Shown here one piece after another: positions 14,912 through 62,816 of a DNA stretch of 64,000 bases. The DNA comes from an uncultured Candidatus Saccharibacteria bacterium (lineage in GTDB: Bacteria; Patescibacteriota; Minisyncoccia; Phycocordibacterales; UBA2100). The stretch spans positions 65,800 to 129,799 of the forward strand of contig CAZZHR010000002.1 in the NCBI GenBank assembly GCA_964654205.1. Direction: 5' to 3'. Position 1 is the stretch's first letter. Every line of letters begins with the position of its first letter. A program made the position numbers and the translations under genes. The notes below the pieces were generated by a model. It had not been told where the DNA came from and searched no databases. It was given only the letters and a program-made list of their open reading frames with translations.

Positions 14912-17900
14912 TCATCTAAAGCCCGTGGCAGCCGCGCCGAATACGACGAGCGAGCTGGTCGCATTGGTCGCGACAAATGAGACGAGGTCACATTGGTTGG
15001 CCGTCGTGGTGAGTGTCGGTGCGCTTCCACCCTGCCAGCGCACGACCGCTGGCCAGGTCAGTGTGCGGCTTCCCGTGCCGTCTTGGCACACCACGAGACG
15101 GAGGATTTGCCCCGCGATGAAATTGGAGAATGTAATCGTGCGGTTGCCGCCGAGTGTCACCTTCTGCTGGTTGCCTTCAAGCCAGTTGATAGCCACGGTC
15201 GCGCCGTCGGAGAGACTCCTTTCCACCGTGGTGATAGCGCCACCCGCACCCACCGCAAATTTCGCAAACGGCGTCGATGTACCCACACCCACGTTGCCGT
15301 TGGCGTTGATGACAAAGAGGGACTGCGCTGTGGTGGAAGCGACCTGTATGAAGTTGGTCGAGCTATCCTGCGTCTCTATCGTGAGCTTGGCCGCAGGGGT
15401 CGTGGTGCCGATTCCTGCCGCTGTCTCTACATAGAGCTTGCCCGCTCCAGTCGGCGACGTGGGGCAGCCGGATGCGCAGACAAGGAGGTTGTCGTCGGAG
15501 AGCAGAATGTTTTTGTTGGACGTGTGTATCGTAAGGTCGCCAGTCGAGTCCACTTGGAGCGAGGCGACCGTGGAATCATTGTACGAAATCGCTACCTGAG
15601 GATTCGCCGCTGCAGCCGTCACCGAGAACTTGCGGTACGGCGATGTGGTGCCGACACCGAAGAATCCGGCACTCGTGGCGCGCATCACCTCGGTGAGCGC
15701 GCCACTTTGCAGTGTCGAGAACACGAGGTCGCCCTTCCCGAGCCCGCCGAAGTTCTGTTGCAAGATGCTCGTGATTGCAGAAGTCGTCGTACCCGTGCCG
15801 GTGACATCGAGCGCGCGGAATGAGAGCCGCGATGCGGTCGATGTCGCGCTCGCCGCATTGGTGAGGTAGAGCTGGTCGGCGGTCGCGCCGGAAGATGTGT
15901 TGTAGACATCGAGCTTCGTGCCCGGCGTCGTCGTACCGATGCCGACATTGCCCGTGCTGGTGATGCGCATTCGCTCTTGGCTCGACTCATATCCACCAGT
16001 CCTAAACTGAATACTGTCGGAGCCGCCTGATGCAACATTCCCGTTGGTAAAGAGCACCAGACTAGTATTCGAACCGAAACTCGTGTTTCCGCCGAGACCG
16101 TATCCGACACCAGACCCGTACGCACGGAAGTAGCCTGTCGCAGTATCGCTATGTACAGTGTATGTGCTCTGACCATTGCTATTTGCATTCGTCACCGTGA
16201 CCCCGTCGACGCTCGCTACATTGCTGTACACAGTGAGTTTTGTAGACGGAGTCGTCGTCCCTACCCCCACGTTGCCGGTGTTTGTCACCGCAAAGAGCGA
16301 GCTCGTCGCGCTCGCGGTCGAGCTCGCTATCTCGAAGAGCATCGTATTGGTCTCGCCCGACAGTGCGTGCACTGAGAGCTTAGCCCACGGCGACGACGTG
16401 CCGATACCGAAGCGCGCATTGACCGTATCCCACGTGAGCGTACTCGACGCCGCCATCACGCCGCCGTAGTTGAATTGTATGTTGCCGTTGCCGCCTGCCG
16501 GAGCCGAGCCGCCGGATGCGAGGAGGGAGCCGGAGAAGTATGTGTAGACTGCCGAACCATCGACAGCTGTACCCGTTGAAAGCACCGCTGCTTCGAGATA
16601 GTCGGATGTTCCATTCATGTCGACAATGGTGGTTACTTGCGCCGCATCTGCACCACCCGATCGATAGGGACCGTTTGCTATCGCGACACCGTTCTTACGG
16701 ACAGCTGCCTGACAGTTGTTTGTGGTATTTGTACATCCAACAGACGCGACAACGATATACTTGCCGGCTACCGTAGGTGTGAAGCGGTTGGTCGTTAGGT
16801 CAAAATTGTTGTTGGTATCGTAAGTTTCAGTCGTCCAATCGACCACAAGTACCGTATCGCTCACAGTGGTTGTCGCCGACCCATTGCGATGCACATGGAA
16901 CGCTACCGTAGAAGAAGCGGTTCCAACCGTGCGGTTCGTGTAGACCTTGACCGCGAATCCGCCTGCGCCGCCTGCGCCGCCTGCGCCTCCAGTGCCCGCA
17001 TTTCCAGCGCTACCCCCGGAGCCAACGGTGAAATAGAAAGTCCCCGTCGGACTGCCTACAAGCTCGTACGCGTATCCTCCGCCTCCACCTCCGCCTCCAC
17101 TCCATACGTTGTTGAGATCATTGATTCCGCCGCCAGCCCCTCCTCCTCCGAACGCGTTGCCTGCGCCGCCTGCTGCCGTAGTACCCGCTCCGCCACCCCC
17201 ACCGCGGGCACCATTGCCCCCCGCTCCTCCCACTGCGTACAGATCTTGCGTCTCCCCACCATCCGCATCAATACCAAGCGTGAGTCCGCCTGCACCACCA
17301 ACGAGATTTACTTCGCCACCGGAGCCAGAACCGCCAGATGCCGCAGGCCCATTGGAGCCAGACCCACCGCCTCCGCCCGTCGCACTTAAGTGCGGAGAGG
17401 AGCATGCGACAGAATTGCTTCCGAAGCATGTCGTACCTCCTACGCCACCATTGCCGCCGTTGCCTCCACCGCCACCCCCTCCACCGCCGCCCCAAACCTC
17501 CACTTCTATATATGACGTATCGCTCGGGAGCGTGAGCGTGCCACCGGAGAAGCTCGGTGCGCTGCCGGGGTCTCCGGTGAAGACCACCGACGAGGTTCCC
17601 ACAGTGGAAGTCGCGTATGTTCCTATGAGCGTGTTGCCACCACCTCCGCCTCCACTCGAGCCGCTCCCCGTCCCCGCACACTGTCCGCTCGGGAGCAGGA
17701 AGCAGCCGCTCGTGAGTTGGACGCCACCCGCAAAGGTGGATGTTGCCGAGCCGGTGATATTGAGGAGTGTTGATTGAATGCCGCCAGAGAATGTTGTGGT
17801 GGAAGGCGACCCAAACGTCGCTGCGCCGGTGGATGCCGAGAACGAGAGCGCGGCTACCGTAGAAGTCGACGAGTGCGTCGAGGTGGCGAGGTAGAAGGTG

Positions 17901-20900
17901 CTGCCGATGTTGCGGAGTGTCCAGAGATTGCTGCCGAGCCCGTCCGAGAGCGCGAGCTGCGGACCTGTCGAGCTCGCGACCGTAAGAATATGGTACGGTG
18001 TCGTCGTACCGATGCCGAACGTACCGTTGAAATAGCCGAGACCGTTGTCGAGAATGCGGAAGCGCGTCGTCGAGGCGGAGTCGAAGAATTCCGTGAGTAT
18101 GCCCGTGCCCGTCCCAGATCCCTGCACTGAGAGCTTAGCCCACGGTGACGTGGTGCCGATTCCGACGTTGCCCGTCGAACCCTGAATGAGCATTCTCGTC
18201 GCGTAACTCCCGGCCGTTGCGTTGGCCTTGAAATGGAGGTCGCCATTGTTGCCCGTCTGCCCTATCTCCGCCCAGCCCGTGCCAGTACCCGCGCCGCCGG
18301 TCGTGAATATCATGCTGCCGACGTTGCCTGTACCGGCTCTGTTGAGGAAGAGTCGGAAGTCGCCCGACGTGTCAAAGGCCGCACTCGTACCGAAGACGTC
18401 GAGCTTACTCCCCGGCGTCGTCGTACCGATTCCCACGCTGCCGGTGCTCTTTACCGCCAAAAGGTCACCGCCGGATCCGCTCGATGAGTTGAGCTGCAAG
18501 AGGTCCGCGCTGGAACCGGTATGAAGACTTCCAACGATGACGGGCTTCGCGATGTCGTGCTCGTTGTAGATGTTGAAGATACCTGTAAAGGTCGGGGAGG
18601 TTTTGCCAAAACCGATCTCCCCCGTGGGACTGACGATGAAGGCGTTGACGCCGTCGGTCCTGTTCTGGAAGAAGAGCGCCCCAGCAGGAGTATTGCCGCT
18701 ATCCCCCGCGAGGAAGCCCCATTTCTTACCGCCGGAGTCCGTATTCTGGAGATTGAACCACGGATCGCTGCCGCTCACATGGAACTTCGCGTCGCTTGAA
18801 GCTGCGCCCACGCCGAGCAGACCCTGCACGAGTAGGTTACCTGTCGTCGTCGCGCCGCCTGAGATCGTGAGGCCGCCCGCCTGTGTGCCGTCGCCGATGG
18901 TGGAACTTGCTGTGACACCGAGGCCGCCAGTTACAGCGAGTGTGGTCCACGGACTTACGTTGCCGATACCGACACTTCCACCACCGCTTTGAAGGACGAG
19001 ATTATTCCATGCACCGGCACCGCTGCTCTGTGCGCTGAGTCCAAAATAAGTATTGCCCGTGCTCGCGCCCGACGCTACAAAGAGCACCGAACCGGCTGAA
19101 CCAGAGACCCAATCGCTCGTCGTTATCGCAAGTTGTGAAGGCGCATTACCGCCAGTAATTTGCAACTTACCGTTGGTCGGACTCGCCGTGCCGATACCGA
19201 AGTTGCCGCTGATGCGGTCGACGAAGACGAGCGGCGAGGAGGTACCGACGGTAAAGAGCGAGGTCGATGGCGGCGTCGATGTGCCGACGGCGAGACCGCC
19301 GGAGGCGATTGTGCTCGTCGCCGTCGTCGAAGTGGCGACGAAATATGAAGCGTCGACGAATGACGTAAAGCGAGCATTGCCACTAACGTGAAGCTTATAG
19401 GTGGGAGAGGTATTACCTATACCTACAGAGCCAGCTGTATTGAGGAACAATAAGTCTGTCGCCGCGGCGCCCGTGCTGATGGAAAATCCAGAGCTATCGT
19501 TACCACTGATTCCGACTTTCCATTCTGGAGTCGTACCGCTTCTGACAAAGCTGACATTCGGTGCCACATTTCCGTTTATCAAAATTCCTTGATACGTCGT
19601 TCCTGCAGTCACATGGAGTGGCTGCTGCGGATTTGTTGTTCCAATTCCAACCCGACCGCTTGGGTTCCAAATGCCGGAGCCCGGGAAGAATGCGGTGCCA
19701 GAGACAGAGAGCGCGGTTGAGGACGCATACGGGAACGTGGACGCTGCTGTGGTAGAAGTCGCAGTGAAGATTGGCGCGGTGATGGTGTTGTATGCGGTGA
19801 GTGCGCCGCGCAGGAGTGAGCTGCCCGCGACTGAGAGGTTTCCGCTTGAGTCGATGGTCGTCGTCGCGCTGCCGCCGAAGTACGCAGTGCCAAAGTTGGA
19901 GAAGTTAGTACTCGACGCATTCCCCGAGAATATCTGGAGCGCCGTCCAGTTGTTGGAGACACTTGTGTCCACGGAGCCCCCACCGCCCGTGATACAAGCA
20001 CCGTCTACGGCAAAGCATCCGTCGGCGAGGTTTATTCCATTGGCAAATGTGGTAGTAGCCGAGCCGGTAAAGGTAATATCGCTCAGCGTAGTCCCAGAAA
20101 GGGTACCGCCCGTAATCGTCGAGTCGGAGATATCGACGCTGCTGAGCTGATCGATTTTGTTTGTGTGCGCGACCGTCTGATACACATTGGTAATACTTGC
20201 CGACTGCGCTGTAGAGACACCGGCGACGAGGCTTGTGAGTCGCTGTTCCACGGCTGCGATCCGCGTATCGAGGTCGGCATCCGTGATGCCGCCGACAGAT
20301 GCAACTATGCGCTCGGTCTCGACGATACGTTCAACGACTCGTTCGTTTGTCACCACAGTCGATGTGCTCACAACAACAGGCGTTTGCTGCGATTGCGCTA
20401 CGATAACCTGTGCGCGTTCATACGGATCCATCGTGTCGATGAATCCCGCATCGAGCGGTGTAAGTGCGAGCGAGTTCGTCGCGTCACTCGGGAACACGAT
20501 GTTGTAGACGAACGTGTCGACGCTCGTGTTGACTGCCTTCGCGATGGTGCGCAGCGCATCAGGGAAGAAAGAAAGTGTCGCGCTCGATACTTGTGCGAGC
20601 GCGACCTCGGGATTCTCAACCGCATAGTACGTCGCATCACTCGCCGCGCGCACCGCGCGCGTCGCCACTTCATCAACTCGTACGAGCGACTGCGCGACGC
20701 TCGCCGCCATCTCGCGCGTAGTCTCCGCTGCAAACCGCGCATAGGCTGGGTCGACAAACGCATACGTGCCAAATGTCATGGTGAACGCAACGAGCATCGC
20801 GACAAACTTCTGCAGAAACTCCGTCGCGGGAGAAATCGTGTACACCGGCACGTGCACATGTGCGTGACTCAAAGTACGAGCAACCGCCTCGTGCACGCCC

Positions 20901-21349
20901 GACGGCGCCGCTGCGATAGACGGCATCGCGTGAGCGACCTTCGCGCTCTGCGCCACCGCCGCAGCCTTCAATTTTTCCTGCACATGCTTCGCGTGCGCCG
21001 CCAACGTCTTCGTCACAGGTATTTGTCCGCTCACAGAAAGGGCGCTCTCGACACTCTTTACACTTTCAGATTTCAACTTTATATCTTGTGGCTTATTCTC
21101 CACCCCGTGATATTCACGCACCCGTTCATCCGACAGCTGCTCCCTGCGGATGGTTTTCGCATGCTCTTGCTCCACGAGGTATTTTTGGAGCGAGCCCTCA
21201 TCGACGTACCAGTTCTTGCCGATTCTTCTACCGCGAAGCCTTCCATCACGGCAAAGACGAGCGATGTAGTCGCGAGAGAGCCCTGCACTGGATGAAGCAT
21301 CCCCGGCCGAGAGGTGCTTCTGCCCGTCGAAATATATTTCGTTGCTCAT
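14912..21349 (-). CDS. Giant (about 2146 aa) membrane-anchored surface fibre protein: N-terminal HTH_17-like domain – TM helix – Gly/Ser/Thr-rich tail-fibre-like repeats
   Basis: Start trimmed to 'MSNEIYFDGQKHLSAGDASSSAGLSRDYIARLCRDGRLRGRRIGKNWYVDEGSL' (excisionase/HTH_17-like). TM helix 'FVAMLVAFTMTFGTYAFV'. At least 14 repeats of 'VGIGTT.P..KL.V'. Poly-Gly block 'YIEVEVWGGGGGGGGGG'. Antisense Arg-rich ORFs are artefacts. Confidence 0.75.
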   Translation of the reverse strand: MSNEIYFDGQKHLSAGDASSSAGLSRDYIARLCRDGRLRGRRIGKNWYVDEGSLQKYLVEQEHAKTIRREQLSDERVREYHGVENKPQDIKLKSESVKSVESALSVSGQIPVTKTLAAHAKHVQEKLKAAAVAQSAKVAHAMPSIAAAPSGVHEAVARTLSHAHVHVPVYTISPATEFLQKFVAMLVAFTMTFGTYAFVDPAYARFAAETTREMAASVAQSLVRVDEVATRAVRAASDATYYAVENPEVALAQVSSATLSFFPDALRTIAKAVNTSVDTFVYNIVFPSDATNSLALTPLDAGFIDTMDPYERAQVIVAQSQQTPVVVSTSTVVTNERVVERIVETERIVASVGGITDADLDTRIAAVEQRLTSLVAGVSTAQSASITNVYQTVAHTNKIDQLSSVDISDSTITGGTLSGTTLSDITFTGSATTTFANGINLADGCFAVDGACITGGGGSVDTSVSNNWTALQIFSGNASSTNFSNFGTAYFGGSATTTIDSSGNLSVAGSSLLRGALTAYNTITAPIFTATSTTAASTFPYASSTALSVSGTAFFPGSGIWNPSGRVGIGTTNPQQPLHVTAGTTYQGILINGNVAPNVSFVRSGTTPEWKVGISGNDSSGFSISTGAAATDLLFLNTAGSVGIGNTSPTYKLHVSGNARFTSFVDASYFVATSTTATSTIASGGLAVGTSTPPSTSLFTVGTSSPLVFVDRISGNFGIGTASPTNGKLQITGGNAPSQLAITTSDWVSGSAGSVLFVASGASTGNTYFGLSAQSSGAGAWNNLVLQSGGGSVGIGNVSPWTTLAVTGGLGVTASSTIGDGTQAGGLTISGGATTTGNLLVQGLLGVGAASSDAKFHVSGSDPWFNLQNTDSGGKKWGFLAGDSGNTPAGALFFQNRTDGVNAFIVSPTGEIGFGKTSPTFTGIFNIYNEHDIAKPVIVGSLHTGSSADLLQLNSSSGSGGDLLAVKSTGSVGIGTTTPGSKLDVFGTSAAFDTSGDFRLFLNRAGTGNVGSMIFTTGGAGTGTGWAEIGQTGNNGDLHFKANATAGSYATRMLIQGSTGNVGIGTTSPWAKLSVQGSGTGTGILTEFFDSASTTRFRILDNGLGYFNGTFGIGTTTPYHILTVASSTGPQLALSDGLGSNLWTLRNIGSTFYLATSTHSSTSTVAALSFSASTGAATFGSPSTTTFSGGIQSTLLNITGSATSTFAGGVQLTSGCFLLPSGQCAGTGSGSSGGGGGGNTLIGTYATSTVGTSSVVFTGDPGSAPSFSGGTLTLPSDTSYIEVEVWGGGGGGGGGGNGGNGGVGGTTCFGSNSVACSSPHLSATGGGGGSGSNGPAASGGSGSGGEVNLVGGAGGLTLGIDADGGETQDLYAVGGAGGNGARGGGGGAGTTAAGGAGNAFGGGGAGGGINDLNNVWSGGGGGGGGYAYELVGSPTGTFYFTVGSGGSAGNAGTGGAGGAGGAGGFAVKVYTNRTVGTASSTVAFHVHRNGSATTTVSDTVLVVDWTTETYDTNNNFDLTTNRFTPTVAGKYIVVASVGCTNTTNNCQAAVRKNGVAIANGPYRSGGADAAQVTTIVDMNGTSDYLEAAVLSTGTAVDGSAVYTYFSGSLLASGGSAPAGGNGNIQFNYGGVMAASSTLTWDTVNARFGIGTSSPWAKLSVHALSGETNTMLFEIASSTASATSSLFAVTNTGNVGVGTTTPSTKLTVYSNVASVDGVTVTNANSNGQSTYTVHSDTATGYFRAYGSGVGYGLGGNTSFGSNTSLVLFTNGNVASGGSDSIQFRTGGYESSQERMRITSTGNVGIGTTTPGTKLDVYNTSSGATADQLYLTNAASATSTASRLSFRALDVTGTGTTTSAITSILQQNFGGLGKGDLVFSTLQSGALTEVMRATSAGFFGVGTTSPYRKFSVTAAAANPQVAISYNDSTVASLQVDSTGDLTIHTSNKNILLSDDNLLVCASGCPTSPTGAGKLYVETAAGIGTTTPAAKLTIETQDSSTNFIQVASTTAQSLFVINANGNVGVGTSTPFAKFAVGAGGAITTVERSLSDGATVAINWLEGNQQKVTLGGNRTITFSNFIAGQILRLVVCQDGTGSRTLTWPAVVRWQGGSAPTLTTTANQCDLVSFVATNATSSLVVFGAAATGFR

Positions 21350-21649
21350 GAGCGATGATGCCTGTGGCCGGACGCACGATTTATCTAATATTCTACTACT
21401 CTTTTCGCCAATTGGACGTGTATCGGACACTATTACGTGTGGACAAGCCTAAGCAGAATTTGTACCGGACATTTTTTACATTTTTTCCCACAAGTTCGTA
21501 TCAACGCACAAAAAATTCTCCGTTTTTTTGAAAAAAAGCCTCTTCACTACAACCTCTCACCTCTTACCTACCCCCCTCCTCCCGGCCGACTCGGGCATCC
21601 GAGGAGCGACGTAGAGCGGTATTCCGCGCGTGTGTGGCGCAGAAAATGA

Positions 21650-22756: not shown

Positions 22757-24196
22757 TTACCTCATTACCCCTTTTATGAGAAGCTCTCTCAATACCTCGG
22801 GGTCAGCTGAACCTCTGAGCTGTCGCATACACTGTCCTAACAAAAACTCAAGAGCAGCAGCCTTTCCTGCCCTGTAACCAGCCGCTACATTTGGGTTCGC
22901 GTCGATGACGCTCTTTACGACACCCTCCATAAGCACCGTATCAGTCTTCTGCAACAAGTCGTGCTTCTCCGCGATTGCAATTGGATTACCGCCCCCTTGT
23001 ACCATGAGCGCGAGAATATCTTTTGCAGCTCGAGAGGTTACCTTCCTTTCAGCGACAAGGCCGATAAGCTCCGCAAAGCCATGTGCATCAACAGGGATTT
23101 CGGCGCTTAAAATCGAATCTCGCACTTCGATGTCTCGGACAATTTTTACCAAATCATTCGCAATATAGTTACTCGCAATTGCGAGCTGTCCTGCGGCAAG
23201 CTTTGCCGCAACGGCGTCAAAAAATCTTCCGAATCGCTCATCCTTTACGAACGAATCCGCATCCTCAGGCTTCACGCCAGCCGCCTTGTACCGCGCGCGC
23301 CTTTGCGCAGGCAACTCCGGCAACTTTAAATCTTTAAACATTTCTACCTCTGAAAGCCTCAGGCTCGGTAAATCAGGATCCGGGAAGTATCGATAATCTG
23401 CGCTACCTTCTTTGGTACGCTGCGGGAAAGTCGCCTGCTTCGTCTCATCCCAACCGAGTGTCTGCTTGGTAACCTCGCCTCCAGTCTCAAGAAGCTTCGT
23501 CTGGCGCTCTATCTCGTAGCGCACGGCGCGCTCCATCGCATTAAAAGAATTTAGGTTCTTGATCTCTACGTATCCCATGGAGCGCTCCCCCCTTTTCGCC
23601 ACAGAAACGTTTGCTTCTACGCGCATCTCCCCTTTTTCCATGTTTGCCTCGCTCACGCCAAGCGCCCTGAGCAGTAGCTGCAGCTCGCGCGCAAACTCAC
23701 CCGCCTGCTCCGCGCTATGAATCACCGGCTCCGTAACAAGCTCCATAAGCGGGACACCAGCTCTGTTGTAATCGATAGTGGTCTCACCTGACACCTCGTC
23801 GCCTGCCTGCGCAGGTAGGTGCATCGAACTTGCTGTATCTTCCTCCAAGTGTACGCGCGTAATCGCTACACCGGCAAGCTCCCCTCCTGAAACTAGCGGA
23901 TGCTCGTATTGCGAGATTTGATAGCCCTTTGGCAAATCCGGATAGAAATAGTTTTTACGGTCAAACTCTGCGTAGTCTGCGAGCTTCGAGCCAAGCGCAG
24001 TTCCCACACGCAGTACATGCATGACTGCCTGCTTATTTATTACCGGGAGCGTCCCCGGGTGCGCCATGCACACAGGGCAGATGTTTACGTTGGGTCTTGA
24101 TTCATCAGGGTCATTTTTTGAAGCACAAAACATCTTCGTCTCGGTTCGAAGTTCGGCGTGTATTTCGAGGCCTATGGTGGGCACATACTCAGCCAT
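22757..24196 (-). CDS. gatB: Asp-tRNA(Asn)/Glu-tRNA(Gln) amidotransferase subunit B
   Basis: 479 aa, 'PTIGLEIHAEL', 'ICPVCMAHPGTLPV', with the GatB/YqeY C-terminal domain. Confidence 0.9.
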   Translation of the reverse strand: MAEYVPTIGLEIHAELRTETKMFCASKNDPDESRPNVNICPVCMAHPGTLPVINKQAVMHVLRVGTALGSKLADYAEFDRKNYFYPDLPKGYQISQYEHPLVSGGELAGVAITRVHLEEDTASSMHLPAQAGDEVSGETTIDYNRAGVPLMELVTEPVIHSAEQAGEFARELQLLLRALGVSEANMEKGEMRVEANVSVAKRGERSMGYVEIKNLNSFNAMERAVRYEIERQTKLLETGGEVTKQTLGWDETKQATFPQRTKEGSADYRYFPDPDLPSLRLSEVEMFKDLKLPELPAQRRARYKAAGVKPEDADSFVKDERFGRFFDAVAAKLAAGQLAIASNYIANDLVKIVRDIEVRDSILSAEIPVDAHGFAELIGLVAERKVTSRAAKDILALMVQGGGNPIAIAEKHDLLQKTDTVLMEGVVKSVIDANPNVAAGYRAGKAAALEFLLGQCMRQLRGSADPEVLRELLIKGVMR

Positions 24197-24625: not shown

Positions 24626-27151
24626 CTACACGACAATGCGCCACCCGTCTGCGAGTAGGGGCTCGGCCTTCTTAAATTTCATTTCCTTGGTCTCAGTGCC
24701 ATTCGTAATAATGACTTTGTCGTTGCGACGGTATTCTTTCTTGCCCGCAATGGGCGCTTGTGCGGTGATACTCCGCGCCGCTCGCGATACCGCTTGTTCC
24801 CCCGCCGTCGCCGTGTGCACTCGCGGCGCCGCTCCGATATGTGGAATTAGTGTTCGTACGTGCGCAGCATACGTCTCCTCTAGCTGCTGGAAAAGCCTGC
24901 GACCTTCTTTTTTGTACTCGACGAGCGGATCGCGCTGTCCGTATGCGCGGAGATTCACGCTCGAGCGCAGGTACTCCATAGCTTCGAGATGCTCCACCCA
25001 GAGAAAGTCGATGCCCTGTAAGAGTATGCGGCGCACCGTCGGGACAAACGCATCCGTAAGCTCCTCTTTCTTTTTCTGTATAGCTTGAGCAAGAGCCTCA
25101 TCAGAGAGCGCGAGCCGCTCGAGCTCAGCCAGTACCGCCCCCTCTCCACCCGTCAGGAGGTCACGGCGACGTGTGTAGATGCTCTTGCGCTGGATGTTGA
25201 GCACATCGTCGTATGCGAGCACATGCTTGCGTGAGTCGAAGTGTATCTCCTCTATTCGCGTCTGCGCCTTCTCGAGCGAGCGCGTGATCATTTTGTTGAA
25301 TATCGGCTCGTCCTCGGGAATATTGAAGCTCCCCATCACCCGCTTGATGACGTCGCTCGCAAAAACGCGCATGAGACTGTCCTCAAGCGAAACGTAGAAC
25401 TGTGTCGCACCCGGGTCCCCTTGTCGGCCTGAGCGGCCACGCAGCTGGTTGTCGATGCGGCGCGCTTCGTGGCGCTCGGTGCCGAGCACAAAGAGGCCGC
25501 CGAGACTTTTTACTTCCTCGTAACTCTCCGGTGTCCCTGGATTGCCGCCGAGCTTAATGTCGACGCCTCGGCCGGCCATGTTGGTCGCGATGGTTACCGC
25601 GCCCTTCTTCCCGGCTTGCGCGACGATCTCACCCTCGCGCTCGTGATTCTTTGCGTTGAGCACTTCGTGCGGGATGCCCTCTTGCTTGAAGTACACCGAG
25701 AGCAGCTCGTTCTTTTCCACCGATACGGTACCGATGAGGACGGGCTGCCCCTTCTCGTGCAGCTCGCGCACGCGCTTCGCTATGGCTTTCATCTTGCCGT
25801 TCTCGGTCTGCAGGATGAGGTCGTCGAGGTCTGTTCGCTGAACGGGCTTGTTGGTCGGCACACTCGCTACGTTCAGGCCATATACCTTGTAGAATTCTTC
25901 GGACGAAGTGGCTGCGGTACCCGTCATGCCCGCGAGCTTGTCGTAGAGGCGGAAATAATTCTGGAAAGTTATCGATGCGAAAGTACGGCTCTCCTGTTGG
26001 ACTGAGACACCCTCCTTTGCCTCTATGGCCTGGTGGAGGCCATCAGACCACCTGCGCCCTGGCTGCATGCGACCCGTGAACTCGTCGACAATGATGACAG
26101 TCCCATCTCGCACTACGTAGTCCTTGTCTCGCTCAAAGAGAGCTTTTGCTCTCACGGCGGTCTCGAGGTGATGCACCATCTTGATGCCAGCATCCGTATA
26201 TATATTGTCTATCCCGAGCGCTGCCTGCGCCTTCTCGATACCTGCATCGGTCATCGCTATCTGTTTGTGCTTTTCGTCTACGGTGAAGTCCTCCTCGCGA
26301 ACCATGCCGCGCGCAATCTGCGCGAATCGCCCGTAGAGCGATTCTGCCTGCGAGACGGGTGCCGAGATAATCAGTGGCGTGCGTGCCTCGTCGATGAGGA
26401 TGGAATCTATCTCGTCGACTATTGCGAACCGGTACCCGCCATCCTGCGGGACGCGCTGACGCAAACCTGCTGCCTCGTATTCAAGGTTGTCGCGGAGGTA
26501 GTCGAAGCCGAATTCATTGTTGGTACCGTAGGTGATGTCGGCGGCATATGCTTCCCCGCGCGTACACGGACGAAGGAAATCTCGCGCCACCTTGAAGCTA
26601 CCTTCTGTATCCTGCTGCGCCTCTTCCTCCGCCTTGAGTTCCGGCGGAACATGCGATGGATCGTATATAAATGACGACTCGTGGTTGAGCACTCCCACGG
26701 TGAGGCCGAGTGCATAGTATATTTGCCCCATCCATGCGCCATCGCGGCGCGAGAGGTAGTCGTTGACAGTGATGACATGTACGCCTTTGCCCTCGAGGGC
26801 GTTGAGGTACGCTGGGAGCGTCGCGACGAGTGTCTTGCCCTCGCCCGTGCGCATCTCTGCGATGCCACCCTGGTGGAGTATCATCCCACCGATGAGCTGC
26901 ACGTCGAAGTGACGTTGACCGAGCGTCCTGCGCGACGCCTCCCTCACCGCGGCAAATGCCTCAGGCGCGAGGCTATCAAGGGATTCCCCGCCCGAAATGC
27001 GGACCTTGAATTCCGCGCTCTTTCCCTTGAGCGCCTCGTCGGTGAGCGCCGTAAACGTGTCTTCAAGTGCATTGACAGCAGCCACAATAGGCTGCGCCTT
27101 GCGGAGCGCCGCGACATTGGTATCTCCGAAGAGTCCTTTCCAAAATGACAT
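24626..27151 (-). CDS. secA: Preprotein translocase ATPase SecA
   Basis: DEAD-motor motifs ('MRTGEGKTLVATL', 'VDEIDSILIDEARTPLIIS') and C-terminal domains. Start trimmed to 'MSFWKGLFG'. Confidence 0.9.
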   Translation of the reverse strand: MSFWKGLFGDTNVAALRKAQPIVAAVNALEDTFTALTDEALKGKSAEFKVRISGGESLDSLAPEAFAAVREASRRTLGQRHFDVQLIGGMILHQGGIAEMRTGEGKTLVATLPAYLNALEGKGVHVITVNDYLSRRDGAWMGQIYYALGLTVGVLNHESSFIYDPSHVPPELKAEEEAQQDTEGSFKVARDFLRPCTRGEAYAADITYGTNNEFGFDYLRDNLEYEAAGLRQRVPQDGGYRFAIVDEIDSILIDEARTPLIISAPVSQAESLYGRFAQIARGMVREEDFTVDEKHKQIAMTDAGIEKAQAALGIDNIYTDAGIKMVHHLETAVRAKALFERDKDYVVRDGTVIIVDEFTGRMQPGRRWSDGLHQAIEAKEGVSVQQESRTFASITFQNYFRLYDKLAGMTGTAATSSEEFYKVYGLNVASVPTNKPVQRTDLDDLILQTENGKMKAIAKRVRELHEKGQPVLIGTVSVEKNELLSVYFKQEGIPHEVLNAKNHEREGEIVAQAGKKGAVTIATNMAGRGVDIKLGGNPGTPESYEEVKSLGGLFVLGTERHEARRIDNQLRGRSGRQGDPGATQFYVSLEDSLMRVFASDVIKRVMGSFNIPEDEPIFNKMITRSLEKAQTRIEEIHFDSRKHVLAYDDVLNIQRKSIYTRRRDLLTGGEGAVLAELERLALSDEALAQAIQKKKEELTDAFVPTVRRILLQGIDFLWVEHLEAMEYLRSSVNLRAYGQRDPLVEYKKEGRRLFQQLEETYAAHVRTLIPHIGAAPRVHTATAGEQAVSRAARSITAQAPIAGKKEYRRNDKVIITNGTETKEMKFKKAEPLLADGWRIVV

Positions 27152-27194
27152 GGATACCCATCCTACCACTGTGCGACTTTTCAATCCATGAAAA

Positions 27195-27222
27195 GAAGAA
27201 GCCTCCTTTCGGAGGCTTCTTC
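27195..27222 (-). terminator. Strong intrinsic terminator (gaagaagcctcc-gaaa-ggaggcttcttc + UUUUC)
   Basis: 12-bp perfect stem and 4-nt loop. The minus-strand transcript continues with 'ttttcatgg'. It lies between the polylysine micro-ORF and secA. Confidence 0.65.
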
Positions 27223-27227
27223 GGGAC

Positions 27228-27298
27228 TACGCGCGCTTCTTGCGCTTCGTGGCCTTCTTTTTCTTGGCTGTCTTTTTCGCCTTCTTTTTCTTTGCCAT
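27228..27298 (-). CDS. Polylysine micro-ORF (23 aa: MAKKKKAKKTAKKKKATKRKKRA)
   Basis: ATG at 27298, TAG at 27228..27230, immediately followed by the terminator. About 74% Lys/Arg. No obvious SD sequence. Confidence 0.3.
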
Positions 27299-27758
27299 GG
27301 TCGTAAATATTTTGAGAGTATTAAACTCGACCTTCGCTTCGCGCGCGAAACGCTACAGCGTTTACATAATTATTGCACTCATGCATGTAAAGAAATGTTT
27401 TTTGAAAAAATTGTGTGGATAACTCTTTTATTTTTTAAAATGTATCTCTGATGTAGAAATCAGTTATATGAAATTACTTTCACAGGAAGATATTCAGTAC
27501 GTACTTGAGAAGACATTTCCTTCCGTACACTCCGCGTCGCTCGCCCATACGCAGAAACACCCTTCTGAGGGGTGTTTCTGAAAGACGCACAGCGGAGGAC
27601 GGGTGCGAGCTCCAAAAAAAGTGAAAGTCTTATGTGAGTGCCGCCGCCCTCCGCAATACGCCCTTTTAGTCCTACGACAAAGAGTAACACCCTGTCCTTG
27701 AGTGACAACCTCTATTCGTTGCACACTACTCAGATACGAGACTTGCGTATAATCAGCC

Positions 27759-27776
27759 ATGGCGGATTATAAACAA
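27759..27776. repeat. 18-bp direct repeat atggcggattataaacaa (copy 1, 3' of the PaaX/Cas2-like gene)
   Basis: Exact match to 28457..28474. Read on the minus strand it contains 'TTGTTTATAAT', a sigma70-like -10 element. Confidence 0.75.
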
Positions 27777-27786
27777 GCGCGTGAGC

Positions 27787-28437
27787 CTATCGTTCTCCCA
27801 AACCGAAGTGCACTCGCAAGGGTTTATCGTACTCGATTGCGTCCGCAATAATGTATCTCACCTCCGTTCGCAGCGATGCGTCTAGCTTCAGAAGCGTTAT
27901 GATTTCTTCACAATCATACGGGTGCACCCATACGCTGTTTTGCAATCGGTGAAAACCAAGTCTCTTTAATATTTCGCGTACACGATCTCGCGTAGAGCGC
28001 CGCGCATGCGGAATGTCGAATATCACGACTCGCCAACGTCCGTCCCATCGACGCGGCCTAGGTATTTCTACGGCCGAAAGCCGGATGCGTTCCGCATGTG
28101 ACTTTCCCCTCTCCGTCAGTATGGGGTAACGTTTGCCCGAGTGCCGCATAAACTCGACCATCCCTTTTTTCTTCAATCTCGAGAGTGTCTCCCGCAGCCT
28201 CTGCGTGGGCTGCGGGGGCAGGATTACATCAAGGTGTTCTCTTTTGATGAGCGCAGCGACTTTCGGCGCCATCACCGCTACCGTGAGAATTCCTCCGAGA
28301 GCGAGCGTACCTATCACAGCTCTTTCTATCGATCCGCGTCTCAACCGCAGACGAACTCCACTCTCCTGGGATACGCGCGATTCTTGCTCACGCCTCTTCT
28401 GGGTATTCTGTTTTTGCCGCATGAGTGCATTGTACAA
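27787..28437 (-). CDS. PaaX-like winged-helix regulator with C-terminal Cas2/VapD-like domain
   Basis: N-terminal 'RLRETLSRLKKKGMVEFMRHSGKRYPILTERGK' (PaaX-type wHTH, 'YxLTxxG'). C-terminal 'WRVVIFDIPHARRSTRDRVREILKRLGFHRLQNSVWVHPYDCEEI' matches the Cas2 core pattern (vvvYDI..rRR..v.k.L..yG.RvQnSVF). No cas1 or CRISPR nearby. Confidence 0.5.
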   Translation of the reverse strand: MYNALMRQKQNTQKRREQESRVSQESGVRLRLRRGSIERAVIGTLALGGILTVAVMAPKVAALIKREHLDVILPPQPTQRLRETLSRLKKKGMVEFMRHSGKRYPILTERGKSHAERIRLSAVEIPRPRRWDGRWRVVIFDIPHARRSTRDRVREILKRLGFHRLQNSVWVHPYDCEEIITLLKLDASLRTEVRYIIADAIEYDKPLRVHFGLGER

Positions 28438-28474: not shown

Positions 28475-28526
28475 TCAGGAATGTTCCCTTTAGTCCTGTT
28501 GTGCAGTGTGCATAAACTGAATACCG

Positions 28527-28622: not shown

Positions 28623-30854
28623 CTAGAGTACTTCGGCCGTACCGGTACGTATCTGCTCAATGACAGGATCCGCCTGCTCTCCAATACCCGGGATAGCGCG
28701 CTTCGCTTCTTCGAGCGCCGCGATCGCCGCCGCGCGATTGCCGGAGAGGTAGTGTATCGCGGCAAGCGTGAAATAGAGCTGCGCATCCTGTGGATTTGCG
28801 CGGATGGCAGCTTCCCAAATCGGCACCGCGCGCACGAGCTGGTTGGTCGAGCGATACGCGGCGAGCACGCGCGAATCGGCCGCCTGGCCTTTCTCGACGT
28901 ATGGTGCGAGCACCTCTTCTCCCTCAGCCATCTGGCCGTTCAAAATGAGCCCAGAGCCGTAAAGCACGGCCGCAGTCGCGAATGACGCGTCGAGTTCGTG
29001 CGCCTGTTTGTAATACGAGAGCGCCGAGGCGGTATCGCCGCGCGCTATCGCGTTCTCCGCAAGCTGGAACATTATTGCCTGCTTTTTCGGAGAGTCTTCG
29101 AGCGCCCGTTCGTACGCTGCCTTCGCATCGTCGTGCAATCCATAGGCTCCATAGAGCACGCCGAGAAAGAGTGGAAAACGCGCATCCAGCGGCGACATGT
29201 CCTCCTGTTTCCGCATTTCCGATTCCGCGAGCGCAAAGAACTGCTGCTTCGTGGCCTCGGGTATGTCGAGCTGGCTCGCCTGTGCTGCCATTTGCGCGAG
29301 CTGCTCCCGGGCTTCCTGCATGCCAAATGTGCCGAGCTCAATCGACTGCCTCATGTACTCCAGATTCGTTGCAATCTGACCCTGCGGTGCGATCGCCTGG
29401 AGCAGAAGCCTGTTCGCAGCGAGCGGCTTTTGGTTGACACCCCATGCGAGGAAAAGCAGCGCGAGTGCACATGCGAGCGCGATGTACGGGATGTACGCAC
29501 GGTTGACTACTGCGCTCCAGAGCACTTTTGCTTCTTGCGCCTTACTGGCTCGATATGCGATAAACGCGAGCACCGTCCCAAAGAGGATGTAGCTTGTCAC
29601 GTTGTCGAAGACGAAGAAGTTGTGCACGAAGTAGCCCGCGAGGAGTCCCGTGAGTATCGAGCGCTCCGCTATCGAGAATCCATCCGGCCGTCCCGTCAAG
29701 ACACTTCGCCAGAGCGCGAATAGCGCAGCGAAGAATATCGAGAGATACGCGAGCAGGCCGAGCGTTCCCCCTGCGACCCACCAGTCGAAAATGATGTTGT
29801 GCACGCGGTCAAACCACGGCTCCTGGCTGTGCATGCGCGGGTCGTAGTACTTGTCGAAAACGAGCGCGTAATTCTCCTGACCCCAGCCCAAAATGGGCTT
29901 CTCCTGTACACCCTGCCATGCCATCTGCCAGTTGATGAATCGCGCCTTCGTCGTCGCGTCGTCGAGTGAGATGGTCGCAAGACGCTGGAGGAAGCCGATG
30001 CGCTGCACCCACGTCTGCTCTTTCACTAAGAAGAACCCGCCGATAATGACGAGGAGCCCTACCACCATCGCCGCCGACGCTCTCCATGCGTTGCGCGAAT
30101 TTTGAGCCTGCATGAGCACGAGCAGCGCGGAAAGGAGCGCGCCGCCGACGAGACCGAGAATCGCACCGCGCGTACCGGTGAGGAGAAGTGCGATGGTGTC
30201 GAGCACAATGATAGAGCCGTACATAAGCGAGATGCCGACGCGCTTTCCCTCGCCCCTTTCCACCCACTGCTGCGCCCAGAGCATCGCCGCGAGGAATATG
30301 TGGAACAGCATGTATGCAGCGAAGTAGATGGGGTTGCCGAATGTCGCGTCGATGCGGCCGCTCAGTCCCGCTGCTCCACCCTGACCGAGTGCAATCTGGC
30401 CGGTAACTTGGAAGAGGCCGTATATCGAGAGGTACGCCGAGACGCCGAGCGTCGTCCACCACAGCCACCGCCAGAGTTTCTCCGTCTGGAGCATCGAGGC
30501 TGCAACCACGGTGTAGACGAGGAGATGGGCAAGCGTCACCCACCCGTCCATGCGCTCGTAGTTGCTCCAGATGCTCTTAAAGGGGTATTCGCCGAAGATG
30601 TCGGCAAGCCCGATGATGGCAACAAATACAGCGAGTGCCGCGAGCACCCATGAGCGCCGGGGTCTATACGCGGGATTGACGAGTGCGAGCGCGAGCCACG
30701 CTGCCGCGCTTATCTCGACAACGATGCGAAAGGCGAAGTTTTTACCCGTGATGTAGGGGAAAAAGAGCGACGAAGTGACGAGGAGGCACACGAAGGGGAG
30801 CGCAAATACGCCAGCAAGGGCAATGAATCGGAGCGTCTTCTCAAGGACAGTCAT
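28623..30854 (-). CDS. O-antigen ligase/polymerase-like (Wzy_C) polytopic membrane protein with C-terminal TPR repeats
   Basis: About 12 TM helices plus a 'RFINWQMAWQGVQEKPILGWGQENYALVF' periplasmic loop typical of the WaaL/Wzy_C family. C-terminal ~250 aa of TPR-like repeats. Start trimmed to 'MTVLEKTL'. Confidence 0.7.
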   Translation of the reverse strand: MTVLEKTLRFIALAGVFALPFVCLLVTSSLFFPYITGKNFAFRIVVEISAAAWLALALVNPAYRPRRSWVLAALAVFVAIIGLADIFGEYPFKSIWSNYERMDGWVTLAHLLVYTVVAASMLQTEKLWRWLWWTTLGVSAYLSIYGLFQVTGQIALGQGGAAGLSGRIDATFGNPIYFAAYMLFHIFLAAMLWAQQWVERGEGKRVGISLMYGSIIVLDTIALLLTGTRGAILGLVGGALLSALLVLMQAQNSRNAWRASAAMVVGLLVIIGGFFLVKEQTWVQRIGFLQRLATISLDDATTKARFINWQMAWQGVQEKPILGWGQENYALVFDKYYDPRMHSQEPWFDRVHNIIFDWWVAGGTLGLLAYLSIFFAALFALWRSVLTGRPDGFSIAERSILTGLLAGYFVHNFFVFDNVTSYILFGTVLAFIAYRASKAQEAKVLWSAVVNRAYIPYIALACALALLFLAWGVNQKPLAANRLLLQAIAPQGQIATNLEYMRQSIELGTFGMQEAREQLAQMAAQASQLDIPEATKQQFFALAESEMRKQEDMSPLDARFPLFLGVLYGAYGLHDDAKAAYERALEDSPKKQAIMFQLAENAIARGDTASALSYYKQAHELDASFATAAVLYGSGLILNGQMAEGEEVLAPYVEKGQAADSRVLAAYRSTNQLVRAVPIWEAAIRANPQDAQLYFTLAAIHYLSGNRAAAIAALEEAKRAIPGIGEQADPVIEQIRTGTAEVL

Positions 30855-30867
30855 AGCCGGGATTCTA

Positions 30868-31686
30868 TCACGAACGCTTCTTGCGCGTCGGCCGGCCATG
30901 GTCGTCTTCGATGCGGACAATGTCCTCCTCATCGAAATCGCCGTATGCGACCTCCACGACGATGCCGCCTTTCTTCGACTCGAGCCTGTGTACCTGTTTC
31001 TTGCCCACACAGTACGTCTCGCCCCTTTTGAGCCTCACCTGCTCCGCTTTGCCCTTTGCATCGTGGAGGGTCGCTAAGGCATCGCCCTCTACAAGGAGCC
31101 AGCACTCGCTGCGACGATGATGGTATTGCAGACTCAACCGACTCTTGGGCTTTATGTAAATGGTCTTGAGATTCCAGTCCTTGCCACTGTCCCAGCCGTA
31201 GTATTCGCCCCACGGCCGTACTGTTTTCTTCACCGGTTTTGCCGCTTTCGCGATCATCCAGGACGAAGACTGTACTTTCCCTCCGTGACCAACTCGGTAC
31301 TTCCGCGCGATGCCGAGCTCGATGCACACAGAGTCCTCTGGCGTATTCGACTGTACCCTGTCGCCGCCATTGGCGAAGACGTGCGGGCGCAGCTTCCGGA
31401 GCGTGCGCGAGACACTCATATCGGGGTCGTTCTCCGCGTGGTCGGTGAGCACCACCTTGTCGACGAACGGGAGCGACCGTATCATCTCTGCGCGCTCTTT
31501 CTCCGGCATAAAAGCGAAACCTTTCTTAGACTTGAGCCAATTGTCATTGTTGATGATGACAACAAGCTTGTCGCCGAGCTTCTTTGCCTCCTTAAACATA
31601 CGCACATGTCCGATATGGAGTGGGTCGAACCCCCCCGACACAGCGACCCATCGAACCTTTTTGCTACCGTATCGTGCCTTGGCCAT
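30868..31686 (-). CDS. Cytidylyltransferase-like (HxGH) nucleotidyltransferase fused to a C-terminal cupin domain
   Basis: 'VAVSGGFDPLHIGHVRMFKEAKKLGD' (HIGH motif). C-terminal 'WGEYYG...LQYHHRRSECWLLVEGDA' is a cupin_2-like domain, as in the type II mannose-6-phosphate isomerase C-terminus. Confidence 0.65.
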   Translation of the reverse strand: MAKARYGSKKVRWVAVSGGFDPLHIGHVRMFKEAKKLGDKLVVIINNDNWLKSKKGFAFMPEKERAEMIRSLPFVDKVVLTDHAENDPDMSVSRTLRKLRPHVFANGGDRVQSNTPEDSVCIELGIARKYRVGHGGKVQSSSWMIAKAAKPVKKTVRPWGEYYGWDSGKDWNLKTIYIKPKSRLSLQYHHRRSECWLLVEGDALATLHDAKGKAEQVRLKRGETYCVGKKQVHRLESKKGGIVVEVAYGDFDEEDIVRIEDDHGRPTRKKRS

Positions 31687-57238: not shown

Positions 57239-57275
57239 GTGTTGAAGCGTACAGTGTGTCGTTACAAAAGCAAAG

Positions 57276-57302
57276 TCGCCGTTTTCTCAAACGGCGACTT
57301 GT
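57276..57302 (-). terminator. Hairpin aagtcgccgtt-ttctcaa-aacggcgactt with UUUUG on minus strand
   Basis: 11-bp stem. Downstream of the 57371 gene and upstream of the UXS start. Confidence 0.45.
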
Positions 57303-61194: not shown

Positions 61195-61220
61195 CAAGAA
61201 GCGTCCCTCAGGGACGCTTC

Positions 61221-62489
61221 TTATTGCGCCGAGAGCGCCTGTTTCAAGCTGCTGTATCGATTCGCGGGATCCCAGAAGTACCACGAGGTGAGCCCTGCGT
61301 CGTACGTTGCGCGTGTCTGGTCGAGGATGTCTTGCGCGGTATACGTCTTGCCGTAATTAAAATCCTGCAGCCACGGGCGCAGCATCTTGGGGTCATACAC
61401 CGGTTTCTCGTACACTGCCGGCGTCGACGTGCCGATACGCGTAAAGGCGAGCGACGGGACGGTCGTCGTGGGCGCTTTGAGTCGCCGCACCGCTTCGGCC
61501 ATGGATTGGTACACGACTTTGTACGGGTCACTGTTCGGGTCACTCAGTCCTGCAAAGCCCTTGTTGTAGTGCGATGGGTACACCATGGGCGCGATGTAGT
61601 CGAAATATGGAAGCGCGCGCTCGAGCTGTTGGCCGATACCGAGGTCGTCGGTGAGCACGGTCGTGTAGCCAAAGAGGTCTGCGCTCATGACCGGCACGTG
61701 GCCGCCGTGGTGCGCCGTATCAAATCCCTTTACTTGCTTGTGGAGATACGAGAAGAATTTCTCCAGCTCGCCTGCCCGGTCTGTCGAGGGATAGACGATG
61801 TCGCTCATGACGCCGTCGGATGGCCAACGGACGTAATCGTAATTCAGTTCGTCGAAGCCGAGCTCGTAGCTCTCTCGGCTAAGCTCCACAATGTAGTCCC
61901 AGTGCGGCTCCGAATTGACCGCGATAAATGAGAGGCCCTTGTGGTCTTTCCATGGCTCACCGGGCCGCGCCTTCGACTGCACCGCTCGCTCAGGATGCAC
62001 CTTCGACATGAAGGGGTCTTGGAACACCGTGATGCGTCCTATCACGTAGATTCCTTTTTCATGGAGCGTCGCGATGAACTCGCGCATATCGCCCGCTCCG
62101 CACTTGGCGGCATCCCACGCTGGTTTCAATTCCTCACTCTCGGGCTTGAACGCGATGGTACCTGAGTAATCTTTTATATCGATAACGACCGCGTTGAGCT
62201 TCGTCGAGTCCAAGAGTTCTACAAGGGTGTTGCGGAGCGAGGGCGTCCCCACGGCGCACTGCGTCATGTATATCGCGTACATGGGCTCCGGCGCGGCCAC
62301 GTGACTTACGCGCGCCTTCGGAGCCTCGGGAATCACCACCTTCGGCGTACTGGTCGCACCAGCGCGGATAAATTCTGCCGACGGATTAGAGAGAGAAATG
62401 AACACGCCCGCCGCAACGACGGCGGGTGCCGCGATGCCGAGGAAAACGACGCCTATCCTCGACGCGCTCGTTCGTTTAGAGCTGGACAT
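61221..62489 (-). CDS. Putative TIM-barrel glycoside hydrolase (GH114/DUF4015-like) with N-terminal TM anchor
   Basis: TM 'IGVVFLGIAAPAVVAAGVFI', then 'LNAVVIDIKDYSGTIAF...GIYVIGRITVFQD...DELNYDYVRWPSD'. Start chosen at 'MSSSKRT' (the ORF-track start at 62543 overlaps the next gene). Confidence 0.45.
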   Translation of the reverse strand: MSSSKRTSASRIGVVFLGIAAPAVVAAGVFISLSNPSAEFIRAGATSTPKVVIPEAPKARVSHVAAPEPMYAIYMTQCAVGTPSLRNTLVELLDSTKLNAVVIDIKDYSGTIAFKPESEELKPAWDAAKCGAGDMREFIATLHEKGIYVIGRITVFQDPFMSKVHPERAVQSKARPGEPWKDHKGLSFIAVNSEPHWDYIVELSRESYELGFDELNYDYVRWPSDGVMSDIVYPSTDRAGELEKFFSYLHKQVKGFDTAHHGGHVPVMSADLFGYTTVLTDDLGIGQQLERALPYFDYIAPMVYPSHYNKGFAGLSDPNSDPYKVVYQSMAEAVRRLKAPTTTVPSLAFTRIGTSTPAVYEKPVYDPKMLRPWLQDFNYGKTYTAQDILDQTRATYDAGLTSWYFWDPANRYSSLKQALSAQ

Positions 62490-62724: not shown

Positions 62725-62771
62725 ACGCTCCTAGTGCACAAACATCTTTATAGTCCTGTGTACCCCTCCCT

Positions 62772-62816
62772 CCCATGAGTGACCTCGTAGGTCACTCATG
62801 GGAGGTCACTCATGGG
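62772..62816. repeat. Triple 13-bp element: cccatgagtgacc / ggtcactcatggg (inverted) / ggtcactcatggg (direct)
   Basis: Read directly. An inverted repeat with a 5-nt spacer is followed 1 nt later by a second direct copy. Confidence 0.7.

Follow-up and report, generated by a model that had tools for sequence, protein, structure and literature searches.

A probable oligolysine micro-gene, conserved and apparently unannotated, with a putative DnaA-box promoter upstream of secA in a Patescibacteria clade

A 64,000-nucleotide (nt) stretch of contig CAZZHR010000002.1 from an uncultured Candidatus Saccharibacteria bacterium (the window; G+C content ~56%) carries a lysine-rich micro open reading frame (micro-ORF), followed by a hairpin and then by secA, all on the minus strand. 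This layout, first pointed out in an initial annotation that took it for a translation-coupled attenuator of secA, proved to be real. We consider it probable, however, that the feature is an independently transcribed micro-gene for an oligolysine polycation resembling a histone H1 tail, and not a leader of secA. It is read as an independent unit because the micro-ORFs have their own terminators, a DnaA box and a -10 element are conserved upstream, secA has a -10 element of its own, hpf lies between the two genes in two relatives, and the whole module has been relocated in another. Such an oligolysine micro-gene with a putative DnaA-box promoter, conserved in this clade and apparently unannotated, is a genuine oddity that can be put to the test.

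The micro-ORF of the window (27298..27227, minus strand) runs from ATG to TAG over the 23 codons already reported, and its translation reads MAKKKKAKKTAKKKKATKRKKRA. The codons are ATG GCA AAG AAA AAG AAG GCG AAA AAG ACA GCC AAG AAA AAG AAG GCC ACG AAG CGC AAG AAG CGC GCG TAG. Basic residues make up 15 of the 23 positions (13 K and 2 R, 65%), a lower share than the Lys/Arg content of about 74% given before; the accompanying description of the codons as A-rich holds in part, as AAG accounts for 10 of the 13 Lys codons and no A run is longer than 5. The peptide would have a mass of 2.7 kDa, an isoelectric point (pI) of 12 and a charge of about +14.5, and it is built of M, A, K, T and R alone and lacks any hydrophobic stretch. 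No other Lys-rich small ORF exists in the window, where the remaining basic small ORFs are Arg-rich off-frame artefacts.

Directly behind the stop codon lies a predicted intrinsic terminator (27222..27191, minus strand), recognised by folding and by the hairpins that accompany the homologous micro-ORFs in relatives. The hairpin, GAAGAAGCCTCC-GAAA-GGAGGCTTCTTC at 27222..27195, has a perfect stem of 12 pairs, 7 of them GC, a GAAA loop and a folding energy of -22 kcal/mol, and TTTT follows at once (27194..27191), so that a G+C-rich hairpin and a U-tract, albeit a short one, stand at the end of the unit as expected of intrinsic terminators. The perfect stem with its U-tract and the distance of 44 positions from the stem end to the secA ATG agree with the earlier description, whereas the gap between stop and stem is 4 nt and not 5. 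Twelve distinct perfect hairpins of at least 10 bp, this one among them, occur in the window, as compared with a mean of 0.35 in a first-order Markov simulation, and strong hairpin terminators appear to be in wide use in this genome. Other window hairpins with perfect stems of 10-18 bp include those at 1959-1992, 14164-14203, 57273-57300, 61196-61222, 62769-62805 and 63582-63611; the one at 61196-61222 (AAGAAGCGTCCC...GGGACGCTTCTT) resembles the micro-gene terminator in style.

We scanned 160 fetched secA loci for small basic ORFs (loci are denoted by L numbers). The micro-ORF and hairpin recur across 15 loci as Lys/Ala-rich ORFs of 13-76 amino acids (aa) with N-termini that are mostly MAK, MAAK or MPAK. 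Beside the window, they lie on the secA strand just upstream in L002-L006, L008, L009 and L081-L086, the secA identity being 55-73%. Their lengths outside L011 are 13, 14, 16, 18, 19, 22, 25, 31, 34, 37, 37-46, 65 and 76 aa. The nucleotide sequences diverge freely while the K/A/R composition is kept, and the pooled peptides contain 49% K, 21% A, 10% R, 8% T, 6% V and 3% P, with AKKA and PAKK motifs. Each of the 14 folded homologues (14/14) has its own hairpin and T-tract, with folding energies between -14 and -28 kcal/mol, and the L011 terminator was read by eye. The terminator sequences are unrelated between relatives, and the distance from stop to stem ranges from 3 to 30 nt. In relatives with similar secA identity (L001, L007, L010, L087, L090 and L092), no micro-ORF stands next to secA.

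The module is followed by secA in 12 loci and by hpf (PF02482) in 2, L086 and L009, where hpf separates the micro-ORF terminator from secA. In L011, the module (three DnaA-like boxes, GGTCGA, ORF and terminator) is inverted on the other strand at a distance of 2.4 kb from secA, with a purD-like gene and hpf in between. A short hpf/raiA gene is found immediately upstream of secA in L086 (2642-2983), L009 (2495-2854) and L011 (2229-2654); hpf/raiA upstream of secA is the arrangement of Firmicutes. The ancestral order was probably micro-ORF, hpf, secA, and there is no hpf at this position in the window. Thus, the module stays intact when the downstream gene switches from secA to hpf and when it is relocated and inverted, and the comparison shows that box, ORF and terminator are conserved as a unit in this Patescibacteria clade (Paceibacteria-type). 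The initial annotation had reserved the case that the hairpin would be conserved and the micro-ORF not, which would make it a pure terminator of an upstream transcript; the micro-ORF turned out to be conserved in relatives upstream of secA.

Upstream of the micro-ORF, a consensus DnaA box, TTATCCACA, follows an A/T-rich tract at 27422..27414 (minus strand); it is a perfect match and a candidate operator or activator site of the micro-gene promoter. The box is invariant in an alignment of nine loci, and perfect in 9 of 14 modules (the window and eight relatives); 3 further modules have it with one mismatch. Patescibacteria sequence totalling 345 kb contains 13 perfect boxes, where 2.6 would be expected, and ten of these 13 belong to micro-ORF modules. 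Nine of the ten lie 102-206 nt upstream of the micro-ORF in the same orientation; the tenth is inverted and stands ~200 nt upstream of the L011 micro-ORF, in its cluster of three DnaA-like boxes. At 39 nt downstream of the window's box, the sequence contains an extended -10-like element, TGCAATAAT (27377..27369, minus strand), which we infer to be the promoter P1 of the micro-gene. This element is identical in L081, and (G/C)ATAAT is found 40-42 nt after the box in L003, L005, L008, L082, L083, L084 and L085, so the distance between box and -10 is 39-42 nt and the box centre would be near -57. A consensus box at a fixed promoter position that is conserved across relatives is what a DnaA-regulated promoter would be expected to show. 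These promoter-like elements also answer, at the motif level, the earlier reservation that no transcription might start upstream of the micro-ORF.

The presumed 5' leader contains another conserved motif, GGTCGA (27327..27332, minus strand), 34 nt before the ATG. It occurs as GGTCGAnnTTAnnACTC in the window and L081, and of 14 loci, 11 have GGTCGR at 33-99 nt before the micro-ORF, as does L011 (12 of 15 modules). A role of GGTCGR in a conserved RNA structure or as a -35 element was discarded, since both its pairing and its spacing to the -10 are inconsistent. The idea of a replication origin was likewise rejected because the window has a single DnaA box, shows no turn of GC skew and has co-oriented flanking genes. 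Two DnaA-box-like motifs with one mismatch were seen elsewhere in the window: TTGTCCACA (21438..21446, minus strand), 42 nt before TAGAAT and upstream of a giant ORF of 2172 aa, and TTATGCACA (28507..28515, minus strand), 38 nt before TATAAT and upstream of a PaaX_M/Cas2-like gene; both hexamers make good -10 elements. This architecture of box and -10, shared with the micro-gene, suggests a small regulon or a general promoter element. A literature search for DnaA boxes or DnaA-dependent transcription in the candidate phyla radiation (CPR)/Patescibacteria found nothing relevant.

The downstream neighbour, secA (24626..27151, minus strand), encodes 841 aa from the ATG at 27151 (MSFWKGLF...) and lies outside the micro-gene unit. 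Between terminator and secA stands a candidate secA promoter, the extended -10-like element TGGTAGGAT (27160..27168, minus strand), 8 nt before the ATG. Of 21 Patescibacteria loci, 14 (the window, L001, L002, L005, L007, L008, L010, L011, L081-L083, L087, L088 and L092) have a TAnnAT-type hexamer that ends 6-11 nt before the secA ATG, and in 9 of them it is TGn-extended. It is present even where no micro-ORF adjoins secA (L001, L007, L010, L011, L087, L088 and L092). A Shine-Dalgarno sequence is usually missing before secA in this clade. The position of these motifs suggests that the secA mRNA is leaderless or has a very short leader and originates from its own promoter; the literature on leaderless mRNAs in CPR/Patescibacteria yielded nothing relevant.

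Several features of the codons speak for translation of the micro-ORF. All 15 loci have a start codon in the Lys frame (ATG, or GTG in L082), and the stop comes after the end of the basic tract. For Arg, CGN codons are mostly used and break up the purine run, so that what is kept is the basic residues and not the purine content. Among Lys codons, AAG outnumbers AAA by 143 to 63 in the micro-ORFs, whereas the ratio is 263 to 414 in the secA genes of these genomes (Fisher p = 1.4e-14; stratified z = 9.95). No A run exceeds 7 in any micro-ORF, and the longest runs are shorter than when Lys codons are redrawn from genome usage (combined p = 2e-8). On iterated AAA codons, bacterial ribosomes slide and output drops, an effect that AAG does not have (PMC4363877). 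The AAG choice and the short A runs fit an ORF whose translation has to run accurately to the end rather than one that stalls, and it is because Lys codons are AAG-biased and long A runs avoided that we argue for productive translation. A mechanism of sliding or stalling on poly(A) tracks was rejected, with longest A runs of 5 in the window and at most 7 anywhere.

These same data bear on the proposal that the locus is no protein gene at all. In that case it would give a purine-rich transcript or a small RNA with no coding function, or it would be a DnaA-box locus in which a reading frame happens to be open. The T-poor, purine-rich sequence is open in all three frames, so that openness alone is weak evidence of coding; most homologues have no recognisable Shine-Dalgarno sequence; and promoter-like elements, leader and terminator would suit a small RNA equally well. 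However, the Lys frame fixed by the start codon, the CGN codons that break the purine run, the in-frame bias in AAG/AAA choice and the retention of K/A/R composition under free nucleotide divergence all argue against it, as does the lack of any Rfam family match: searches of the whole window at gathering thresholds, and of 27000-28000 and L081 2300-3000 at E <= 10, returned sub-threshold noise only. We therefore regard a non-coding locus as highly improbable.

A regulatory leader, as the initial annotation had proposed by analogy with translation-coupled attenuators and SecM, would use the micro-ORF in another way: the position of the ribosome at the stop codon, or its stalling on Lys codons, would decide termination and tune read-through into secA or hpf-secA. 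Such a leader would start, as here, with a short ORF rich in one amino acid (13 Lys codons in 23), then an intrinsic terminator, then a gene. Moreover, with just 4 nt between stop and stem in the window, the 5' arm would be covered by a ribosome that terminates there; the U-tract, at 4 U, is short; secA or hpf-secA follows the module in 14 of 15 loci; and Rfam gives a weak, sub-threshold similarity to Phe_leader (21 bits versus a gathering score of 55). The adjacency to secA can also be explained by descent, because relatives keep the gene order Wzy/TPR gene, micro-ORF, secA, gatB. Of the four defining features of an attenuator that we tested, the locus lacks the other three. First, there is no mutually exclusive antiterminator pairing that depends on ribosome position: both minimum-free-energy and centroid folds of 27330..27140 show the terminator only, and as the ORF and the 5' arm of the hairpin are both purine-rich, an antiterminator with the 5' arm cannot form. 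Second, on motif evidence the interval between terminator and gene contains a candidate promoter (TGGTAGGAT in the window), a conserved -10 or extended -10 also standing directly before hpf in L009, and relatives without a micro-ORF have the same secA promoter layout. Third, there is no constant linkage to one operon related to the sensed amino acid, given that the module precedes hpf in two loci and is unlinked from secA in L011; none of the genes concerns lysine, and lysine supply has no functional tie to secA or hpf. Besides, the stop-to-stem distances of relatives are mostly outside the ribosome's reach, their terminators share no sequence, and AAG preference with short A runs favours smooth translation. 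Attenuation of secA is hence very unlikely in our assessment.

A sensor of Sec activity fares similarly. Arrest peptides that monitor Sec or YidC are defined by an N-terminal signal or transmembrane segment and a conserved C-terminal arrest motif (PMC10987492). The micro-ORF agrees with them in being an uncharacterised small ORF that directly precedes a sec gene, a criterion taken from the same source, but neither the window peptide nor any of 15 homologues has a secretion signal or transmembrane segment. No RAGP/RAPP/RGPP-like motif was found either; the C-termini are KRA, KRR, KKR, RRR, KKK, RRS and similar, and the peptides share no Pro-containing C-terminal motif. The downstream gene's own promoter, the variable spacing and the relocated module, once compared, are what make a leader and a stand-alone gene separable here, and they carry the warning that an amino-acid-rich micro-ORF followed by a terminator is not always an attenuator.

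We next turn to the product, which has no demonstrable place in any known family. Scans of the 23-mer and seven homologues against Pfam and NCBIfam at E <= 10 (with E <= 1 where the 23-mer was compared to Pfam) returned nothing significant and no match to ribosomal families, including PF08213/DUF1713, and a PDB sequence search at E <= 10 gave no match. A protein database search with the 76-aa L006 homologue brought up 8000 word-sharing candidates, none of them at E <= 0.01; composition-corrected scoring is blind to this micro-ORF family. Exact look-up of 14 delimited peptide sequences, alternative starts included, found all of them absent from a collection of 15 billion proteins. The best scores were those of H1-like and Hc2 profiles (PF07382/NF038052 and NF038053), at 10-12 bits (E 0.2-0.7), the cut-offs being 40, 80 and 135 bits; they came from the 34- and 76-aa homologues only, and the window 23-mer had no score at all. 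The peptides nevertheless have the composition of H1-like proteins, being Lys/Ala-rich and repetitive with length polymorphism. The literature on lysine-rich small or H1-like proteins in CPR/Patescibacteria contained nothing relevant.

A different home for such a peptide would be the ribosome, where, in the manner of bL37, bS22, eL41 or Thx, the product of a stand-alone gene would bind rRNA as a stoichiometric or accessory component. Its size, its pI of about 12 and its tiny stand-alone gene match bL37 (24 aa) and bS22 (33 aa), the ribosome hibernation factor gene hpf is a neighbour in three relatives, and strong expression signals and a MAK N-terminus are typical of abundant proteins. On the other hand, no ribosomal family or ribosomal PDB chain was matched, and a six-fold length range (13-76 aa) of low-complexity K/A repeats is unlike proteins that sit in a defined rRNA pocket. 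The composition is also Lys/Ala/Pro/Thr, as in H1 tails, rather than Arg-rich with specific anchor residues. We judge a ribosomal component unlikely, though it is the chief competing view of the function. The alternative already mentioned by the initial annotation, a tiny polybasic protein, is the one that the evidence favours; its assignment to the bS22 kind found no backing in the family searches.

Taken together, the preferred reading of the locus is a transcription unit of about 170-180 nt, separate from secA. In the order of transcription, it would comprise the DnaA box (27422..27414), 39 nt, the extended -10 (27377..27369), a leader of ~65 nt, the ORF (27298..27227) and the terminator (27222..27191), and secA would be transcribed from its own -10 element at 27168..27160. 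The product would be a +15 oligolysine/alanine peptide (13-76 aa in relatives) with the composition of an H1 C-terminal tail. It may act as a non-specific nucleic-acid polycation, most likely a nucleoid-associated one that neutralises or compacts DNA in ultra-small cells, although binding to rRNA or ribosomes is possible in place of DNA. Its transcription would be tied to DnaA status through the box near -57.

A number of observations weigh against this reading. All promoters and start sites in it are deduced from motifs, and the polycation function is likewise a deduction from the predicted peptide; as significant homology is lacking, the function is argued from composition. The box may be a general promoter element without a specific link to DnaA, because similar motifs lie ~40 nt before the -10 at two other window promoters. 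The module is still found just upstream of secA or hpf-secA in all but one of the 15 loci, and since the terminator has just four U's and AGGA stands 9 nt ahead of the secA ATG, some unregulated read-through into secA may occur. Versions of 13-14 aa (L083 and L081) are very short for a stand-alone effector. The AAG bias could be a general codon bias of highly expressed genes and not avoidance of A runs, and in the window itself the Lys-codon ratio (3/10) is indistinguishable from that of secA (11/29). Lastly, the loci, being related, are not independent of one another in phylogenetic terms.

If made, the peptide would be among the smallest conserved bacterial gene products and, in Patescibacteria with their tiny cells and reduced biosynthesis, a candidate for a major polycation. 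A more far-reaching idea, which we put forward tentatively and hold to be doubtful, is that of a previously undescribed "genetic polyamine" in this CPR clade: a DnaA-box-controlled oligolysine of 13-76 residues, coupled to replication initiation, that would serve as a major counter-ion of DNA or rRNA and as a bacterial equivalent of protamines or H1 tails. Such a gene can readily escape detection. Versions with no more than about 30 codons are too short for the length limits that gene callers usually apply, low complexity defeats profile and homology searches, the peptides are missing from the 15-billion-protein collection, and the window peptide would evade shotgun proteomics because trypsin leaves fragments of 3 aa or less. 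In addition, a conserved DnaA box at a fixed promoter position offers a testable handle on DnaA-dependent transcription in Patescibacteria.

As for the neighbourhood, the secA product has 61-66% identity to secA of Paceibacteria/Kaiserbacteria-type metagenome-assembled genomes and 73% to that of L081, a Hainich groundwater contig, which places the window in a Patescibacteria (CPR) genome. L085, with L081 one of the closest relatives, likewise stems from the Hainich wells (H41/H43). A context look-up of the window's own secA returned no record, and gatB turned up only on a contig of 1.8 kb. All genes around the micro-ORF are co-oriented on the minus strand, in the order Wzy_C/TPR protein gene (31010..28623), PaaX_M/Cas2-like gene (28437..27787), a spacer of 490 nt, micro-ORF, secA and gatB (24196..22757). 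The PaaX_M/Cas2-like gene encodes 216 aa and matches PF20803, the PaaX central Cas2-like domain (E = 1.6e-21), its Cas2 match being weak; it is missing here in L081, whose Wzy/TPR gene stands right before the spacer. The giant ORF of up to 2172 aa (14912..21430, minus strand) is found downstream of the secA-gatB block. No tRNA or tmRNA was found.

The spacer upstream of the micro-gene has further elements. An imperfect hairpin of ~85-90 nt with the core GGTGCGAGCTCCAAA...GTGAAAGTCTTATGTGAGTGCCGCC occurs in a single copy in the window (27581..27672, minus strand). It is nearly identical in L081 (2462-2545), though inverted there relative to secA, and a related copy is present in L087 (~2900-2960), a locus without a micro-ORF. 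A perfect 11-bp hairpin (CAGAAACACCC-7 nt-GGGTGTTTCTG, 27552..27580) with no clear T-tract comes directly after it and probably marks the end of this upstream unit. The region 27540-27700, which includes both hairpins, has a fold z-score of -5.7. The long hairpin has no Rfam match and may be an uncharacterised small RNA or a palindromic element; judging from a G-U pair, the minus strand would be its RNA strand in the window. An ATG-initiated ORF of 88 aa in the spacer (27494..27760, minus strand) has no family match and overlaps the conserved hairpin, and was set aside as probably spurious.

Compared with known systems, the micro-gene shares with the trpL, hisL, pheL and thrL attenuators a short ORF rich in one amino acid, a close terminator and a gene downstream. 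It differs from them in having no alternative antiterminator and a variable distance from stop to hairpin, in a neighbour with its own -10 and no tie to lysine metabolism, and in standing also before hpf or unlinked. With SecM, MifM, VemP and the RAPP-type upstream ORFs, it has in common that a small ORF directly precedes secA in the same orientation, but it carries neither the signal or transmembrane segment nor the arrest motif; moreover, SecM-type systems use a stem-loop that sequesters the Shine-Dalgarno sequence on a shared transcript, whereas the micro-ORF is followed by a terminator and a separate candidate promoter. The ribosomal micro-proteins bL37, bS22, eL41 and Thx are alike in size, in a pI of ~12 and in tiny stand-alone genes that annotation easily overlooks. 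A case in point is the gene of the polybasic, 24-aa bL37 of M. tuberculosis, which is unannotated (10.1101/2023.03.31.535098). These proteins bind rRNA through Lys/Arg salt bridges and are of fixed length with position-specific conservation, unlike the low-complexity micro-ORF peptides with their six-fold range.

The closest likeness, one of composition, is to the bacterial H1-like proteins, namely Chlamydia Hc1/Hc2, the Burkholderia/Bordetella H1-like proteins, Pseudomonas AlgP, the mycobacterial HupB tail and Rv3852. Both sides have ~50% Lys and ~20% Ala with Pro, Thr and Val, AKKA and PAKK motifs, strong length polymorphism and no acidic or aromatic residues, and the Hc2 and H1-like (Burkholderia type) models provide the sole profile similarities of the micro-ORF peptides, although these sub-threshold scores are no evidence of homology. 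The H1-like proteins are also larger, at ~100-250 aa, several with a folded domain, against 23 aa (13-76) here. Protamines and the adenovirus mu peptide are very short and almost purely basic, and they neutralise charge and condense DNA. They are Arg-rich and eukaryotic or viral, arise by processing or in specialised cells, and have no evolutionary relationship to the micro-ORF peptides; the likeness would be one of functional analogy only, that of a short basic peptide.

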